Part shown: piece by piece, positions 291-62,689 of the stretch
How the letters are laid out: each line of letters begins with the position of its first letter
How positions within the stretch are numbered: position 1 is the first letter of the stretch
From: a virus
DNA length: 64,000 nucleotides
Strand: one strand, 5' to 3'
Virus record (IMG/VR): IMGVR_UViG_3300044568_004391
Coordinates: 87,985-151,984 of that record
Notes under the pieces: model-generated
Told to the model about the DNA's origin: nothing
Seen by the model: only the letters and a program-made list of their open reading frames with translations
Databases searched by the model: none
Program-made: the position numbers and the translations under genes

Positions 291-660
291 TGTTAGTATG
301 TCAGTCTGACACCCCCACTTTTTTATTTGAGAACTACTGAAGAGGGATAAATTTGACCCTCTAAAGTTGGGGAATTTAAAGGAACTTCGTTCTCACGCCC
401 CTTCAGGGGGGATATTCTTTTTTTTGCTGTAAATAATTACCATCTAATTTTTCCTTGCTGGCACTACTGCCAGAGGGGATTTTTTCCCCTTCTTACTATC
501 AAGAACGACAATATGGTGGTATAAAGTGGGGGAAGGTGGGAACAAATGGGAGGACAAAATATGGGGGGTGGGATTATCCCATCCCGCAGTCGAGACTGAC
601 ATTTTGTCATTTCCAAATATTTCAGGTTATTTTTTTATTAAAAATTACCCCTCTTTATAC

Positions 661-1023
661 TCAGGGGACTAAGTATACTATTGTTTTAGAAGGTCTCCAA
701 TCTTGTATTTCAAAATCTGTAACCTTATTGATATCCAAGTAATCGGATAAGATGGGTGATATTGATATTATGAATTTTTCAATAAAGGTAAAAAAATCCT
801 CTTCGTTTAAAGTATTTTTGATAATTCCGTAGGCGGGTAGTGTGTCATATATATCAAATCTACCCAACACATCAATAGAATTATATTCTTCATATGTAAA
901 GATATGAGTTTGATCCACATAATAAAATACTGTTATATTACCTCTTGAATCTCTGTGGGGAACTAATCTCCCACCTTTAAGTTCAGATAGAACTAGGGAT
1001 ATGAGTTTATCAATTTTTTTCAT
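661..1023 (-). CDS. hypothetical protein, tandem paralogue family A
   Basis: Start moved to MKKIDKLISLVLSE, matching its neighbours. Confidence 0.75.
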   Translation of the reverse strand: MKKIDKLISLVLSELKGGRLVPHRDSRGNITVFYYVDQTHIFTYEEYNSIDVLGRFDIYDTLPAYGIIKNTLNEEDFFTFIEKFIISISPILSDYLDINKVTDFEIQDWRPSKTIVYLVP

Positions 1024-39494: not shown

Positions 39495-39840
39495 CTTTTC
39501 TGTGATTCTTATAGTTGTTTATGAGTGTTGAAATATTTAATCTTCCGACGGGGTTAGAACTCTGAATTCCGTAAGGTGGAGGATTGAGATTATTATCCAA
39601 ACAATACTCCACCATCCAAATTGCCGCATCATACCCCGTCTTTTCTTTTTTGGTCTCACCCAAGTCGTGGTCAAAACAAACCCCGTCGGGAAGCCCATTT
39701 ATCTTAATCCATGAAATAAACTCTTTGTAATTCTTAACCCATGTAACTTCAACATCTGTTCCAATAGGTGAGAACGAGAGCCAGTTCATATTAGGATCTA
39801 AAGGATTTCTCAAATCATCGAGCCAAAGTAGTTTTTTCAT
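39445..39840 (-). CDS. cyclic-phosphate-processing receiver-like domain protein (RNA-repair associated)
   Basis: LWLDDLRNP, FDHDLG, TGYD, SSNPVG. Confidence 0.75.
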   Translation of the reverse strand: MKKLLWLDDLRNPLDPNMNWLSFSPIGTDVEVTWVKNYKEFISWIKINGLPDGVCFDHDLGETKKEKTGYDAAIWMVEYCLDNNLNPPPYGIQSSNPVGRLNISTLINNYKNHRKDDRISRVKKIHRGGKC

Positions 39841-40644: not shown

Positions 40645-40705
40645 TTATTTTTTTTTTATCCTTTCAACACGACAAAGTTAGGTAATATTCCTCCAAAATC
40701 CAAAT

Positions 40706-52956: not shown

Positions 52957-52988
52957 CAAAGATATATCATATTTTTCAATTTTCCAAA
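52957..52988 (-). promoter_or_regulatory. Bacteroidota promoter (TTTG-N20-TATCTTTG) followed by boxA-like GTTCTTTGA
   Basis: Read directly on the minus strand. Confidence 0.75.
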
Positions 52989-56085: not shown

Positions 56086-56340
56086 TTATATCCATTCTTT
56101 TACATCATAAGCATTATAATCATAAAGCTTTGGTGAAAATTGTGGATACTGTTCGCTAACAAAAAAATGAATTAATTTACCTGATTTTAAATTTTTACTT
56201 ACCCACGTCCAATTTCCGTTTTGATCTTGCGTTGGAATTTCGATTACTTGACATTTGATACCAATTGGGCCATCATATTCATAATGAATGTCACCAATTC
56301 TGATTTCCTCCACTATAATATTTCCGGCAGTCTTGGTCAT
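56086..56340 (-). CDS. hypothetical protein
   Basis: ORF overlapping the upstream gene by 4 nt. Confidence 0.65.
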   Translation of the reverse strand: MTKTAGNIIVEEIRIGDIHYEYDGPIGIKCQVIEIPTQDQNGNWTWVSKNLKSGKLIHFFVSEQYPQFSPKLYDYNAYDVKEWI

Positions 56341-57074
56341 GACGAAAGATAGGTGTACAGATTTATTGCAGATTGTTTTGCTTCAGACAATGTCTTGATC
56401 TTTTCTTTTCCTAACCTTGAGAACGGTATAAAATTTTTGATTCCCGCTTCTTCAATCTTTTTTCTTTCGTTGGAATCTTTTGCGTTTTTTATCGATTGAA
56501 TAAATTCGGAATTGTATTTATTCCATTCATGTTCATCATAATCTTGAATGTTTGGAATATAATCGGATTCGAAGTATCTATCACCGATTTTGAATAATGA
56601 TTCTCCTTTAGGAGTTGAAGTCACATATCCAACGATTTTTGGTGTTCCATATTTCAGAGAAGCATAATGAGTCGTTTTTTCAACATCATCGTATTTGATC
56701 GCAACACCTTTTGGGAAATCATCACAAACTTTTAAATTGTTTTGATAATACGACCAACCTGTCCTTAGATCTCCAATCAAAGTTCCATCTTTGGAAACAA
56801 ATGAATTTGGAATGTTAAAGGTTTCTCCCGAGTGAGACCAAGAATATTTTCTGATGTATCCTCCGGTAAATCTGTTAATCTTATAAATTTTGTTAATGTC
56901 CGGAATCCATCCATTTTTGTCTTTGTCGGGAAAAACCCTACTAACCAACTTAACAAATCCAAGATCCAAATGAACTTGGTTCAGGATACTTTTTCCGATA
57001 TAATTCGGAGATTTTTGAAACCTGAATTTTACCTTTCCAAGATATGGTGTTTGATTCTCAATCATGGTTTTCAT
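56337..57074 (-). CDS. hypothetical protein
   Basis: 245-aa ORF. Confidence 0.7.
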   Translation of the reverse strand: MKTMIENQTPYLGKVKFRFQKSPNYIGKSILNQVHLDLGFVKLVSRVFPDKDKNGWIPDINKIYKINRFTGGYIRKYSWSHSGETFNIPNSFVSKDGTLIGDLRTGWSYYQNNLKVCDDFPKGVAIKYDDVEKTTHYASLKYGTPKIVGYVTSTPKGESLFKIGDRYFESDYIPNIQDYDEHEWNKYNSEFIQSIKNAKDSNERKKIEEAGIKNFIPFSRLGKEKIKTLSEAKQSAINLYTYLSS

Positions 57075-57714: not shown

Positions 57715-57773
57715 TTTTTTTATAAAAATATATGTAAAAAAAATTCAATAGACAAATTATTTTGAAAAAAAAG

Positions 57774-57847
57774 TGACCCCTATGGGATTCGAACCCATGA
57801 CTCTCACATTAAAAGTGTGATACTCTAGCCAGCTGAGTTAAGAGGTC
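57774..57847 (-). tRNA. tRNA-Lys(UUU)
   Basis: TCACA-CTTTTAA-TGTGA. Confidence 0.92.
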
Positions 57848-58595: not shown

Positions 58596-58632
58596 TTTTT
58601 AAATTTTTTTAATGTCAAAGAACTCTTCCTTG

Positions 58633-58705
58633 TCGAGAAAGCGAGACTCGAACTCACAACTTCTGCGTCCCAAACGCAGCGCTCTACCAATTGAACTATT
58701 TCTCG
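58633..58705 (-). tRNA. tRNA-Pro(UGG)
   Basis: CTGCG-TTTGGGA-CGCAG. Confidence 0.92.
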
Positions 58706-58795: not shown

Positions 58796-58907
58796 AAAAT
58801 GACCGTTTTTTCCCCCATTAGCCCACCCAAGAGAGGGACCTTGTGATGGATTTTAGTTCAGGAAGTCTGACAGGGTTTCCCCCATCAGACCGTTACCACG
58901 GACAAAC

Positions 58908-59618
58908 CTACCCACTTACAACACCAATCATAAAATAATTTTCCTCGTAGATCAAGTAATTACCAACGGGCAAAGCATCAATTAAAAATAATTTATTTTC
59001 CAACATCAATTTCATCGGCATTTCTTTAACTTCTGTATGACCCACGACTTGAATATATTGATCATTCAAAAAAGTATTTTTATTTCCCGACATCAAACTT
59101 CTTGGACGAATCCAAATCGGTGTTTGCATGATATCATCACCTGTTGGATCAAATATTCCGTTGAATTCAAAATTTCGTGGTTTGTATTTCCAAATTTCAT
59201 TTACAAAGTTAGAGATAGGTTCTCCTTCCTTGTATCTATTTTGATTTACCAACCAATCATAACCAATACCCGCATGTGAACACAAGATATTATCCATCTC
59301 ATAACACATTTGAAGGTGGTGTAGGTTTTCTTTAATAAGAAGTTGAATTGCCGGTCCTGCACTCCGTTGAAATCCACTATACACTTCGTAAGTGTTGATA
59401 TAATGGAAGTCATGATTACCAATCAACATAATAACCTCACATTCACCTTTTTCTTTGAACTCAATAATTTCCTTGAAATTATATTGTTGCTCTGCTGATC
59501 CAATGTCGAAACTGTCAAAATAATCCCCGATGAAAACAACCCGATCAGGTTTTTCACTTTCTACGATTTTTTTCCATATGTCTCGACCATGAATATCTCC
59601 GATAAAGATTGTTTTCAT
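58908..59618 (-). CDS. calcineurin-like metallophosphoesterase
   Basis: GDIHG, GDYFD, GNHD, SHAG, GHT. Confidence 0.9.
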   Translation of the reverse strand: MKTIFIGDIHGRDIWKKIVESEKPDRVVFIGDYFDSFDIGSAEQQYNFKEIIEFKEKGECEVIMLIGNHDFHYINTYEVYSGFQRSAGPAIQLLIKENLHHLQMCYEMDNILCSHAGIGYDWLVNQNRYKEGEPISNFVNEIWKYKPRNFEFNGIFDPTGDDIMQTPIWIRPRSLMSGNKNTFLNDQYIQVVGHTEVKEMPMKLMLENKLFLIDALPVGNYLIYEENYFMIGVVSG

Positions 59619-59634
59619 TAGTTTATTATTTTAG

Positions 59635-59732
59635 TAGTCAGGACAGGACTCGAACCTGTACGTATAGGATTAGCGCGTAGCCTATACACATCTTATTTGA
59701 GGAGTGCGTCTAACCAATTCCGCCACCTGACT
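59635..59732 (-). tRNA. Leu-like tRNA-shaped RNA with an irregular anticodon arm and oversized variable arm
   Basis: Intact acceptor, D and T arms; A73; 98 nt. Confidence 0.6.
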
Positions 59733-59738
59733 GTGTTT

Positions 59739-59942
59739 TTAGTCTTTAAACTCTCGATAAACAAACATGAAAAAACAAATGTAACTAAGGGTCAACCCAC
59801 CCACTAGAGAGTATCTGATTAGCTCGTGAAGTAGGGTACCGTCGAGTGGCACATCCCAAAGGATACAAGTTAAAAAAACAATAAATGACAGGATGAAGAG
59901 TGTGAGTGATGCAAATCCTGTGATGTTGATTAGTTTTTTCAT
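59739..59942 (-). CDS. small two-TM protein
   Basis: Hydrophobic ORF between tRNAs. Confidence 0.6.
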   Translation of the reverse strand: MKKLINITGFASLTLFILSFIVFLTCILWDVPLDGTLLHELIRYSLVGGLTLSYICFFMFVYREFKD

Positions 59943-59970
59943 AGTGATTCAGATAATTTTTATTTTTTTG

Positions 59971-60044
59971 CTCTCCCTCTTGGGCTTGAACCAAGGACCT
60001 ATTGATTAACAGTCAACCGCTCTAACCGACTGAGCTAAGGGAGA
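59971..60044 (-). tRNA. tRNA-Asn(GUU)
   Basis: GTTGA-CTGTTAA-TCAAT. Confidence 0.9.
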
Positions 60045-60049
60045 AAAAG

Positions 60050-60140
60050 GGTCGAGTTCAACACGCCAGGAAGGGCCCAACAAGCCTCTTTCACTGAAGA
60101 GGAAGGGCCCAACTAGCCTGTAGGTGAAGAACTTTCGACC
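60050..60140 (-). ncRNA. candidate rod-shaped, two-fold pseudo-symmetric ncRNA inside the tRNA array
   Basis: Closing stem GGTCGA/TCGACC; two copies of AGGCT(A/T)GTTGGGCCCTTCCT. Confidence 0.6.
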
Positions 60141-60144
60141 TGTA

Positions 60145-60217
60145 AGAAGGAGACGAGATTCAAACCCGCGACCATCAGATTGGAAGTCTGACGATCTACC
60201 AACTGAGATATTCCTGC
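60145..60217 (-). pseudogene. degenerate tRNA-Gly(UCC)
   Basis: Good anticodon arm, but two acceptor-stem mismatches, altered D stem and T-loop TTTGAAT. Confidence 0.65.
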
Positions 60218-60222
60218 AAACG

Positions 60223-60295
60223 AGCCTCTAGACGGACTCGAACCCCCGACCCGCTCATTACAAATGAGCTGCTCTACCAACTGAGCTATAGAGGC
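60223..60295 (-). tRNA. tRNA-Thr(UGU), canonical
   Basis: GCTCA-TTTGTAA-TGAGC. Confidence 0.92.
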
Positions 60296-60301
60296 AAATA
60301 G

Positions 60302-60375
60302 TCCTCCCACTTGGATTTGAACCAAGGACCTACGGTTTATGAGACCGCCGCTCTAACCGATTGAGCTATGAGAGG
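60302..60375 (-). tRNA. tRNA(CAU), probably Ile2 (lysidine)
   Basis: GCGGT-CTCATAA-ACCGT; paired C1-G72 so not an initiator; near TilS. Confidence 0.75.
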
Positions 60376-60442
60376 GTTTTTTTATTATTCCGATACTTCA
60401 AAGAACACCACAAAGATATGAATTTTGGATTAATTAACCAAA

Positions 60443-60856
60443 TTAAACTAAACCTTTTTTCAGTACTTCTGAAACTAATTCTATATTCATTTCGGGATTG
60501 TGTTCCTCTCTATGACAATTCGAACAAAGGAGTTCACATTTTAAAAATTCTTGATTTATGTAATCAATATTACGATTAGAAAGTATCCTCATATCTAATT
60601 TGGATTCTTTTTGTGTTGGATCAATATGATGAAATTCTAATGCCGCTATATTTTTATTATAACCACATCTTTTACAAGATCCTCCAGCTTGTTCAATCAA
60701 GGATAGTTTTCTACGATAAGCCCTAATTGTTTGAGAATGATACGTATTTGTTTGTTTTTTTAATCTATGGTAGTGATGTTTTTGTTTACAAGCGCCAGAA
60801 CAATACATTTTTTTTTGACCAGATAATTCAATATCACATACTATACATTTTTTCAT
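60443..60856 (-). CDS. free-standing HNH endonuclease with an N-terminal Zn finger
   Basis: CxxC...CxxxC; CKRCG..LEFHH..LLCSNCH...H. Confidence 0.85.
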   Translation of the reverse strand: MKKCIVCDIELSGQKKMYCSGACKQKHHYHRLKKQTNTYHSQTIRAYRRKLSLIEQAGGSCKRCGYNKNIAALEFHHIDPTQKESKLDMRILSNRNIDYINQEFLKCELLCSNCHREEHNPEMNIELVSEVLKKGLV

Positions 60857-60864
60857 GTTTTTAT

Positions 60865-61482
60865 TTATAAATATACAGTATTATGTTTTTGTTCATAATC
60901 CTTGATCATTTTTTTCACGACAGTTTTAAGACCGGGGTTGACCTTTAGAAGTTCGGGAATAATATTATGTCTGATTCTATTTCTTGAATATTCCACCGAG
61001 TTATTTGATTCGTCTTGAATAAAAGGTACATTTTTCCTTTTACACCAACTTTCGAACTCAGACTTTTCAGTCAAAAGAAAAGGACGAATAACATTTTCCT
61101 TACGATAAGGGATGACCGATTGAAACCCCCTCGTCATAGTGAAAATATATGTTTCTAGACAATCATCCAAATGGTGACACGTTACGATTGGAAAATCAAA
61201 TGATCTAAAAAACTTATACCTCAAATCAGACCACACCTTTTCCTTGTTGGATTTTGGTTTTTGATCCGTCCTTCCAACAAACAAACTCAAACCGTTTTCC
61301 TCACAATATTTGGTGATAAACTTTTCAGCATCATCACCGTGTTCTGTATTGTGATTGAAATAAAGGACGTGTGGATTATAATTTGATCTTCTCAAAAAAT
61401 CCAAGACGGCCATAGAGTCAACCCCTCCCGAACAAGCAAGACCAAATTCAGAGGTTGGAATATTTCCGAGTACTTTGATCAT
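60865..61482 (-). CDS. tilS: tRNA(Ile2) lysidine synthetase, minimal N-terminal domain
   Basis: SGGVDS, RY.FF, HHLDD..ET, IRP.L, DESN, RN.IRH; start reassigned. Confidence 0.88.
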   Translation of the reverse strand: MIKVLGNIPTSEFGLACSGGVDSMAVLDFLRRSNYNPHVLYFNHNTEHGDDAEKFITKYCEENGLSLFVGRTDQKPKSNKEKVWSDLRYKFFRSFDFPIVTCHHLDDCLETYIFTMTRGFQSVIPYRKENVIRPFLLTEKSEFESWCKRKNVPFIQDESNNSVEYSRNRIRHNIIPELLKVNPGLKTVVKKMIKDYEQKHNTVYL

Positions 61483-61497
61483 AACATTATTTTTTTG

Positions 61498-61585
61498 TGG
61501 AAGGTAAGGGATTCGAACCCTTGCATCAGTTTCCCGACCTAGCGGTTTAGCAAACCGCCCCCTTCGGCCTCTTGGGTAACCTTCC
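61498..61585 (-). tRNA. tRNA-Ser(GCU)
   Basis: GCGGT-TTGCTAA-ACCGC; long variable arm. Confidence 0.92.
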
Positions 61586-61594
61586 AACTTATTG

Positions 61595-62155
61595 TCACAA
61601 TATAAGAACCGGTTGATTCAAATATTCGATCAATAAGGTTTTAACTTCGGAATTACAAATTCCATTTTTGTGATCTGTTGACAAAACAAAATGTTCCAAA
61701 CCCCACCCTTGTTCTCCAAGTCTCATATCATCGATTGCTACCCATGATGCGACGTAAGGATGATTGTCCAACCATTTTCTGATTTCCAAAACTCGGGTTT
61801 GGTTTAACCCAAGACCCATCTTAAATTCGAACTCAGGTGGAACTTCACTTCGATCGATGAAAGGGGTAAAACCGATTGGTTTTTTGATGATCCCCTGACT
61901 TTCATAATATTCACCGATTTCTTCCAAAGTTGCCCATGTTCTCCAATCAGAAGAAATTACAATCTCACAATCGGTGTCCCTGATGACCTGATTCAGACAT
62001 TCAACACAACTATGATTGAAGTTGTCAAACCTATCCAAGATTGGGATTTCTTTGATGGTGGGGCGTGGATCATATTTTTTTTGTTTATCGAATCTTGAAC
62101 CCCATTCAGATTCCAAACAGATCACACCATCGTGATCCATAAAAATTACTTTCAT
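61595..62155 (-). CDS. HAD domain of the Swiss-army-knife RNA-repair type
   Basis: FMDHDGV, VISSDWR, EI..WL, VAIDD; start reassigned. Confidence 0.8.
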   Translation of the reverse strand: MKVIFMDHDGVICLESEWGSRFDKQKKYDPRPTIKEIPILDRFDNFNHSCVECLNQVIRDTDCEIVISSDWRTWATLEEIGEYYESQGIIKKPIGFTPFIDRSEVPPEFEFKMGLGLNQTRVLEIRKWLDNHPYVASWVAIDDMRLGEQGWGLEHFVLSTDHKNGICNSEVKTLLIEYLNQPVLIL

Positions 62156-62173
62156 TTGTTTTAATTGTTGCGG

Positions 62174-62259
62174 TAGCCGGAGCGGGGATCGAACCCGCAC
62201 GGACCCTTCGGTCCATTTGATTTTAAGTCAAACATGTATACCAATTTCATCATCCGGCC
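62174..62259 (-). tRNA. tRNA-Leu(UAA)
   Basis: TTTGA-CTTAAAA-TCAAA; normal long variable arm. Confidence 0.92.
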
Positions 62260-62368
62260 ATGATTATTCCGATATGTCAAAGAACACCCAAAACATACAA
62301 CAAATCTTCTGAAGTTTCAACCCCTCCCTCTATTCTATATTTTTGGGGAGGGGAGAGGAGCCTACTAT

Positions 62369-62689
62369 TTAGTAGGCGTCCATCTCATCAATCACGTAAG
62401 CCACGTTTACGTTTACCTTGTCTTCGTGGTTTCGGATGTCCACAATGAACCCACCCATCCCGAAGTTGGTCACTCCTTCCTGTTCGTAGGAAGTGAATGC
62501 TTGGTTCATCACGACGGTGGTATAGTCCTTGAGTGTTTGGACGTTGAAAGAGTCGGGTGACACTTCCAACCAAGAAGTATACATCGCCTCACGGTTCAGA
62601 GCCTTTACGACCTTCGCTACGGTTTCGTAGTCGAAGTTGTTGGTTACACGGCCAATCCGGTTTTGGGGGTTGGAGATGACGTTTTTCAT
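62369..62689 (-). CDS. hypothetical, probably early protein
   Basis: Promoter TTTG-N20-TACCTTTG at 62711-62742; higher GC than neighbours. Confidence 0.75.
   Translation of the reverse strand: MKNVISNPQNRIGRVTNNFDYETVAKVVKALNREAMYTSWLEVSPDSFNVQTLKDYTTVVMNQAFTSYEQEGVTNFGMGGFIVDIRNHEDKVNVNVAYVIDEMDAY

Follow-up and report, generated by a model that had tools for sequence, protein, structure and literature searches.

A candidate small RNA gene with a pseudo-dyad repeat core in the tRNA array of a freshwater phage

Background

Phage tRNA arrays are now viewed as counter-defence loci, and some of them include RNAs that are not tRNAs. For such embedded RNAs, exemplified by RNAC and RNAD of phage T4, we know of no role established in 50 years. 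RNAC and RNAD (the species 1 and 2 stable RNAs) are non-tRNA RNAs of the T4 tRNA cluster that lie on the tRNA strand, a few nucleotides from their neighbors: rnaD and rnaC follow tRNA-Arg with spacers of 1 and 6 nt, beside the segB homing endonuclease gene. The function of both RNAs is unknown (PMC3014915, PMC9697503). GOLLD and ROOL are orphan phage RNAs found near tRNA islands (PMC12286853).

The rod RNA described here shares the placement of RNAC and RNAD. It is found in the right-hand 64 kb (the window, 64,000 nucleotides in all) of a 152-kb IMG/VR phage record that is estimated to be 52% complete. The phage is uncultured and of freshwater origin, and DNA of the region is present in many lake-water metagenomes.

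Architecture of the rod RNA

The rod RNA is a 93-nt sequence on the minus strand (60049-60141), defined by its predicted fold and by a covariance model, R1. It forms an unbranched hairpin with 29 bp in this copy and 32 bp in its relatives. From the base upward, the helix GGUCGA/UCGACC (60140-60135 with 60055-60050) is followed by an AA bulge, GUUC/GAAC, a UU x UU loop, CAC/GUG, a small loop and CAGG/CCUG. Above these, CUAGUU lies opposite UU, two GGGCCC blocks (60110-60105 and 60078-60073) are paired with one another, and UU lies opposite CUUGUU. The rod ends in an apical hairpin (60085-60102), located by the fold and by pair counts among variants, in which the 6-bp stem CCUCUU/AAGAGG carries the loop CAGUGA (60096-60091). 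As seen from relatives, the stem gains a pair of 60141 with 60049.

The core is a pair of 20-nt direct repeats with a 32-nt period. Copy 1, AGG-CUAGUU-GGGCCC-UU-CCU (60100-60119, minus strand), was identified by repeat finding and motif search, and copy 2, AGG-CUUGUU-GGGCCC-UU-CCU (60068-60087, minus strand), by the same means and by the fold. The unit AGG-CUWGUU-GGGCCC-UU-CCU is in large part its own complement. Its two copies therefore pair in antiparallel orientation, which gives the core a pseudo-dyad symmetry of 3 bp, a 6x2 loop, 6 bp, a 2x6 loop and 3 bp. An earlier inspection of the letters by a model (the sequence-only reading) had proposed the helices, the pairing between GGGCCC palindromes, the mirror-image loops and the cap, all of which were recovered on the minus strand. 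Its statement that the repeats differ at one base is also borne out (60119-60100 versus 60087-60068, 19/20 bases identical).

The predicted minimum free energy of the rod is -40.9 kcal/mol (z = -3.9), a value matched by 1 of 200 dinucleotide shuffles. Among 12,782 overlapping 100-nt segments from both strands of the window, the rod ranks second, and it ranks first if only unbranched folds are considered. Its G+C content (0.53) is similar to that of the adjacent tRNAs, compared with 0.342 for the 152-kb record and approximately 0.3 for flanking coding DNA. The rod is present in a single copy in the phage record, and the 13-nt core of its repeat is absent from the rest of the record, so it is not a dispersed repeat. 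The only reading frames across it are TTG- or GTG-initiated frames of 25-70 amino acids that overlap tRNAs, and none is a credible ORF.

Other strong folds also occur in the window. The 112-nt gap between ORF236 and tRNA-Tyr (58796-58912, minus strand) folds with -39.5 kcal/mol (z = -1.8). A hairpin-dense region at 62300-62430 (both strands; z from -3.4 to -4.8) follows ORF106 and precedes tRNA-Leu, and a further rod, of roughly 30 bp, is predicted at 39540-39634 within 39530-39650 (minus strand; z = -3.2).

Setting in the tRNA array

In minus-strand order, a promoter-like site (60411-60442) is followed by tRNA-Met(CAU) (60301-60375), tRNA-Thr(UGU) (60222-60295), a degenerate Gly(UCC)-like tRNA (60145-60217), the rod and tRNA-Asn(GUU) (59970-60044), with spacers of 3-5 nt throughout. 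The Met, Thr and Asn tRNAs are called by both ARAGORN and Rfam. The Gly-like sequence scores 37.9 bits with the Rfam tRNA model and receives no call from ARAGORN. With spacers of 3-5 nt on both sides, the rod occupies a tRNA-sized slot. It had been described as flanked by tRNA genes, which holds for its 3' neighbor, tRNA-Asn, but its 5' neighbor is only the degenerate Gly-like tRNA.

These neighbors are constant among the five known versions of the rod (the window, L039, L088, L091 and L099; see below). The Gly-like tRNA is always directly 5' of the rod and is diverged, with an 8-nt deletion in L039, L088 and L091. The tRNA-Asn gene always begins 4-6 U residues after the rod (the U run that follows the stem has five residues in the window and six or seven in L088, L091 and L099).

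The promoter-like site upstream of tRNA-Met was found by a motif scan and consists of TTTG, 20 nt and TATCTTTG on the minus strand. It conforms to the pattern TTTG-N17-22-TAnnTTTG, the Bacteroidota promoter consensus. This pattern has 19 sites in the window versus 5.1 expected, and none of 100 shuffles reaches 19. Copies precede several tRNA clusters (for example 60411-60442, 52957-52988 and 40673-40704, all on the minus strand). The enrichment would fit a Bacteroidota host, and the copy at 60411-60442 may act as a promoter.

The genes among the tRNAs encode an HNH endonuclease, a PP-loop enzyme (PF01171, TilS/QueC-like; 60865-61587), a PF18143 HAD domain (61595-62200) and a calcineurin-like phosphoesterase (58908-59618), the last three on the minus strand. 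PF18143 is the HAD domain of 'Swiss Army Knife' RNA repair proteins. From its gene content, the locus can be described as a tRNA and RNA-repair island. A fourth interleaved protein (56337-57074, minus strand) matches the Thoeris inhibitor Tad6 at 22.6 bits, below the cut-off of 27.

A second odd RNA, a Leu-like tRNA mimic, lies downstream (59635-59732, minus strand). It has an AGUCAGG/CCUGACU acceptor and no proper anticodon arm. Homologues of the mimic are found in two distant relatives that do not have the rod (L042:4723-4833 and L049:5021-5115), whose locus proteins are 46-67% identical, so that the mimic is older than the rod and more widely distributed.

Comparison with known families

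No Rfam 15 family overlaps 60049-60141, either in a scan of the whole window at gathering thresholds or in a scan of 59600-60450 at E <= 10. The sequence-only reading had taken the element for a structured non-tRNA RNA that is neither SRP, 6S nor a known ribozyme, and the lack of any family match, even at E <= 10, upholds that description. The rod copy of contig L099 also belongs to no family, its sole match being a chance one to suhB (E = 1.1). A tRNA identity was considered and rejected: the tRNA model RF00005 recognizes both neighbors of the rod, ARAGORN recognizes tRNA-Asn, and neither calls the rod itself, whose fold is unbranched, with neither a T arm nor an anticodon arm.

A blastn search of 50,697 phage records returned only 20-nt chance matches, in tape-measure genes of Salmonella phages. 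Searches of approximately 185,000 prokaryote genomes with 19-mer and double-repeat patterns gave scattered chance matches in unrelated phyla, all rejected by the covariance model, so at that level no host RNA or repeat has been copied. Pattern matches in IMG/VR (L002 and L052-L077) were likewise rejected by model R1, with the exception of L068 and L069, which are the records L039 and L040 described below. A further candidate, L094 (23.5 bits), is an unrelated tandem 22-nt repeat that happens to include GTTGGGCC.

Homologues in lake-water phages

Protein-guided, pattern-guided and covariance-model (R1) searches were combined to find homologues. The rod is present in two IMG/VR records (L039 and L040) and four metagenome contigs (L097, L088, L099 and L091) besides the window. 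Five distinct versions result (alignment A5), namely those of the window, L039 (identical in L040 and L097), L088, L091 and L099, of which the four non-window versions are in lake-water phage contigs. Model R1 matches only the window copy and these homologues. The block of pseudo-Gly tRNA, rod and tRNA-Asn is the same in 5/5 versions.

More distant relatives, whose ORF236 proteins are 47-69% identical to that of the window, gave no model match, neither in the 10-kb loci nor in five records searched in full. Between their tRNA genes lie the Leu-like mimic or other folds instead of the rod. In a set of 5.8 billion proteins, the identity of ORF236 falls from 98% to 69% without intermediates. The only intermediate is L099, in which an ORF236 homologue is 79% identical over 145 residues.

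Several other RNAs were observed in these loci. In L088 (217-479, minus strand), an insert of about 190 nt interrupts the anticodon loop of the tRNA-Asn(GUU) gene beside the rod; the insert matches the group I intron model RF00028 at 277-454 (54.1 bits, gathering score 50). In L099, approximately 100 nt downstream of tRNA-Asn, a freshwater-1 RNA (RF02979; 74 bits, gathering score 72) at 654-715 (minus strand) replaces ORF67 of the window. This copy ties the freshwater-1 motif to these lake phages and their tRNA arrays. Unbranched hairpins are also predicted between tRNA genes in two unrelated phages that share the HNH gene family: a 129-nt hairpin between tRNA-Met and tRNA-Arg (L037:4512-4640, -47.6 kcal/mol) and a 63-nt hairpin between tRNA-Ile and tRNA-Glu (L027:6257-6319, -26.6 kcal/mol). 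Neither has sequence similarity to the rod.

Conservation of the fold

The five versions differ at 13 sites of the rod, five of them in bulges or loops and eight in paired columns. The unpaired variable sites are in the AA bulge, at the W position of both 6-nt loops and at one site of the apical loop (A or U), whereas the apical stem is invariant. None of the eight changes in paired columns breaks a pair. By computed expectation, a random substitution at a paired site would retain a standard pair in 18% of cases, and a transition in 52%. Two mismatches of the window are repaired in relatives: AxC at 60141:60049 gives way to A-U (L088, L099) or G-C (L091), and CxC at 60123:60065 to C-G (L088, L099) or G-C (L091). 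The remaining paired changes are three from C-G to U.G and one from U.G to U-A. RNAfold predicts the same rod for L091, L099 and L088, with 32 bp and -43 to -46 kcal/mol; three of the extra pairs were recognized only once the variants had been seen.

Read on the minus strand, every wobble pair is G.U; the plus strand would have A-C mismatches in their place. Because the wobble pairs are standard on the minus strand only, the functional strand is that of the tRNAs, which argues against a DNA cruciform. As for the covariation that the sequence-only reading had thought worth seeking among homologues, the pair-restoring and wobble changes are suggestive, but in a shuffle control with these five close sequences they are not statistically significant (169/500).

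The W positions of the 6-nt loops are both U in three versions, both A in one version, and one of each in the window. This matching hints weakly at two equivalent sites. From the fold, its conservation and its strand, the rod looks like a real, selected small RNA gene.

Divergence and module exchange

L099 is the version that informs on rates of divergence. In the 242-nt block that is co-linear with the window, its rod differs at 3/93 positions, its tRNA-Asn at 6/75, and its pseudo-tRNA and spacers at 14/74, and the adjacent ORF236 DNA differs at 75/474. By Fisher tests, the rod differs less than the rest of the block (p = 0.006) and less than ORF236 DNA (p = 0.0003), and it is not distinguished from the adjacent tRNA-Asn (3/93 versus 6/75, p = 0.15). 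Overall, the L099 rod has changed less than the DNA around it and not more quickly than tRNA-Asn, and its loop sequences are also kept, a near-identity that could partly reflect recent transfer of the block, since exchange of tRNA modules is common. In L039 and L091 the background itself diverges by 1-5%, so the 3-8% divergence of the rod in these phages is uninformative and was dropped as an argument.

Exchange of modules is evident when the window is compared with L039 and L091. These phages are otherwise 95-99% identical, yet their tRNA-Lys, tRNA-Pro and tRNA-Ser genes show 23-39% divergence, and some of the phages lack an HNH endonuclease gene or a tRNA-Thr that others have. The swapped modules are located at 57773-57847, 58632-58705, 61497-61585, 60443-60856 and 60222-60295 of the window. 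The sequence comparison indicates that the arrays differ by module swapping through recombination and not by gradual drift.

Processing, expression and proposed role

Our best reading, to which we assign a probability of about 0.5, is that the rod is a gene for a noncoding RNA of approximately 93 nt that takes up one slot of a tRNA operon, that would be cut out with the tRNAs, and that would serve as a protein-binding platform. The promoter-like motif before tRNA-Met, together with the lack of room for a promoter between the rod and tRNA-Asn, suggests that the rod is co-transcribed with tRNA-Met, tRNA-Thr, the Gly-like tRNA and tRNA-Asn from the site at 60442-60411. RNase P cuts at position +1 of every pre-tRNA, so the 3' side of the rod must be freed 4-5 nt past the stem. 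This cut at the 5' end of tRNA-Asn would leave the rod with a short U tail. The sequence-only reading had remarked that tRNA processing could release the RNA; by position, such processing must make at least the 3' cut. On the 5' side, release might come about when the upstream pseudo-tRNA decays or is processed at its 3' end, after which a nuclease-resistant hairpin of about 30 bp would presumably persist as a stable RNA. In this the rod would follow the example of RNAC and RNAD in T4.

The part of this reading that concerns protein binding follows from the conserved loop sequences and from a core of two equivalent units. Two copies of one 20-mer would present two equivalent loop-helix faces, and the rod most likely binds a protein, plausibly one that forms a homodimer, in a conflict over tRNAs and RNA repair to which the neighboring genes point. 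Our searches found neither a partner protein nor host mimicry for the rod, and its roles as a decoy or as a ligand of a dimer are speculation.

Sequences from the region occur in 24 sequencing runs, including two metatranscriptomes in which its share is small. The contigs cover some phage genes and tRNA-like stretches and not 60083-60173, which is no evidence either way, because metatranscriptome libraries rarely capture structured RNAs of 90 nt.

A more specific role, based on a detail of the loops, is a long shot. The GUU in both CU(A/U)GUU loops is the anticodon of the adjoining phage tRNA-Asn(GUU) and is set in a context resembling an anticodon loop. The rod might then be a dyad decoy that displays the Asn anticodon twice and engages a host enzyme that recognizes GUN anticodon loops and works as a dimer, occupying both of its subunits. 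Candidates for such an enzyme would include an anticodon nuclease used in defence and enzymes of tRNA modification or charging. Such a decoy would protect or redirect tRNA-Asn during infection. If true, this would be an RNA-based counter-defence of a new type within a tRNA and RNA-repair island.

Alternative explanations

The rod could act only in cis, as an RNase III-type cleavage site or as a folding insulator between the decayed tRNA and tRNA-Asn, in which case it would do nothing in trans. Such a site might look like the rod, an extended duplex that is interrupted by internal loops and lies between genes sharing a transcript. The rod is directly 5' of tRNA-Asn in 5/5 versions, and the pseudo-tRNA of L099 has an Asn-like 5' half that could mispair with tRNA-Asn. 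However, the loops and 20-nt repeats are conserved in sequence even in L099, beyond the needs of an insulator, and the other tRNA junctions of the array lack such a hairpin. Also, the 6x2 loops break the duplex every 4-6 bp, which would probably make it a poor substrate for RNase III. We consider a purely cis-acting hairpin unlikely.

The rod might instead be a non-functional relic, either a duplicated palindromic insert or tRNA debris, that has been kept through recent exchange or recent divergence. Its narrow distribution is compatible with this idea, as is its absence from relatives at 47-69% identity. The array is a mosaic with swapped tRNAs, a variably present HNH gene and an adjacent pseudo-tRNA, and the sequence AGAGGCU-yGUU of the rod recurs at the 3' end of tRNA-Thr and in a spacer. 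Against a relic, a G+C content of 0.53 is maintained in a genome of 0.34 while the adjoining pseudo-tRNA drifts. Pairs are never broken by the changes in the rod, four of which mend mismatches. The L099 rod also diverges significantly less than the remainder of its block and ORF236 DNA, and no more than tRNA-Asn. A relic is, in our judgment, an explanation with little chance of being correct.

An intrinsic terminator or attenuator that ends the Met-Thr cluster is improbable. It would account for the GGUCGA/UCGACC base followed by a U run (five U residues in the window and six or seven in L088, L091 and L099), but the fully conserved tRNA-Asn begins within this run, which leaves no space for a separate promoter. 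A consensus terminator scan did not flag the rod, and a 93-nt hairpin with conserved loops and repeats far exceeds what a terminator needs.

Function at the level of DNA is very improbable: the direct repeats are 32 bp apart, or three helical turns, as might suit 20-bp protein sites, and a cruciform could be a target for recombination or for the HNH endonucleases whose genes enter and leave the array, yet the outer 13-16 bp of the stem lie outside the repeats and are nevertheless conserved and repaired, and in a cruciform, as on the opposite strand, the four wobble pairs would turn into A-C mismatches. We give scarcely any credence to a self-dimerizing RNA, in which two rods are joined through their self-complementary 20-mers as an extended duplex: homo-oligomeric phage RNAs near tRNA islands exist in GOLLD and ROOL (PMC12286853), and the predicted homodimer (-90.2 kcal/mol) is more stable than two monomers (-81.8 kcal/mol), but any long hairpin yields such a computed gain, and the palindromes are buried in an intramolecular helix (pair probability 0.99-1.0) with no exposed self-complementary loop.

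Relationship to known RNAs

Several known systems resemble the rod in part. GOLLD and ROOL share its setting near tRNAs, but are ornate RNAs of 500-800 nt with unrelated folds, and their models miss the rod. Freshwater-1 is, like the rod, an orphan RNA of phage tRNA regions, but it comprises two hairpins in 62 nt, and its model also misses the rod.

The R sites of phage T7 early RNA are long, imperfect RNase III hairpins with internal loops that are located between genes, and a homodimeric enzyme would fit a two-fold site. In contrast to RNase III sites, the rod has helices of 3-7 bp between large asymmetric loops whose sequence is conserved. Phages also use repeat-built RNA decoys, such as pseudo-ToxI and RNA anti-CRISPRs, whose repeated units could occupy a host defence protein. 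The rod differs from these in having only two 20-nt units, with a 32-nt period, that are paired together, and no prokaryote repeat matches it beyond chance.

Y RNAs and YrlA provide a lead only. They share with the rod a stem built from the ends of the RNA with bulges, a 3' U tail and adjoining tRNA-like sequence, and the GGUCGA/UCGACC helix is reminiscent of their conserved Ro-binding helix. However, no Y RNA or YrlA match falls on the rod at E <= 10, the single YrlA match being on the Met and Thr tRNAs, and the tRNA-like module is not nested in the stem of the rod. A search for Ro60 with PF05731 (TROVE) gave no match in the 152-kb record, which is approximately 52% complete, and detected its positive controls.

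The closest systems are RNAC and RNAD of T4. These RNAs, of 139 and 119 nt, stand at the end of their cluster, whereas the rod is 93 nt and lies between tRNA-like neighbors. RNAC is branched, with a tRNA-like T arm, whereas the rod is unbranched, and neither RNAC nor RNAD has a dyad-repeat core. When model R1 was run on the T4 tRNA region with filters off, its best match (9 bits, E = 0.9) was outside rnaC and rnaD. On this comparison, the rod is similar in kind and placement to RNAC and RNAD and not homologous to them.

Without a partner, the rod stays a lineage-restricted orphan RNA of one group of lake phages; a partner, if found, would give a first mechanism for the class of tRNA-cluster RNAs. 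The rod is a compact and unusually legible example of that class, whose design predicts two equivalent binding faces for a dimer. It is a lineage-restricted, unbranched dyad-repeat design that is distinct from RNAC.
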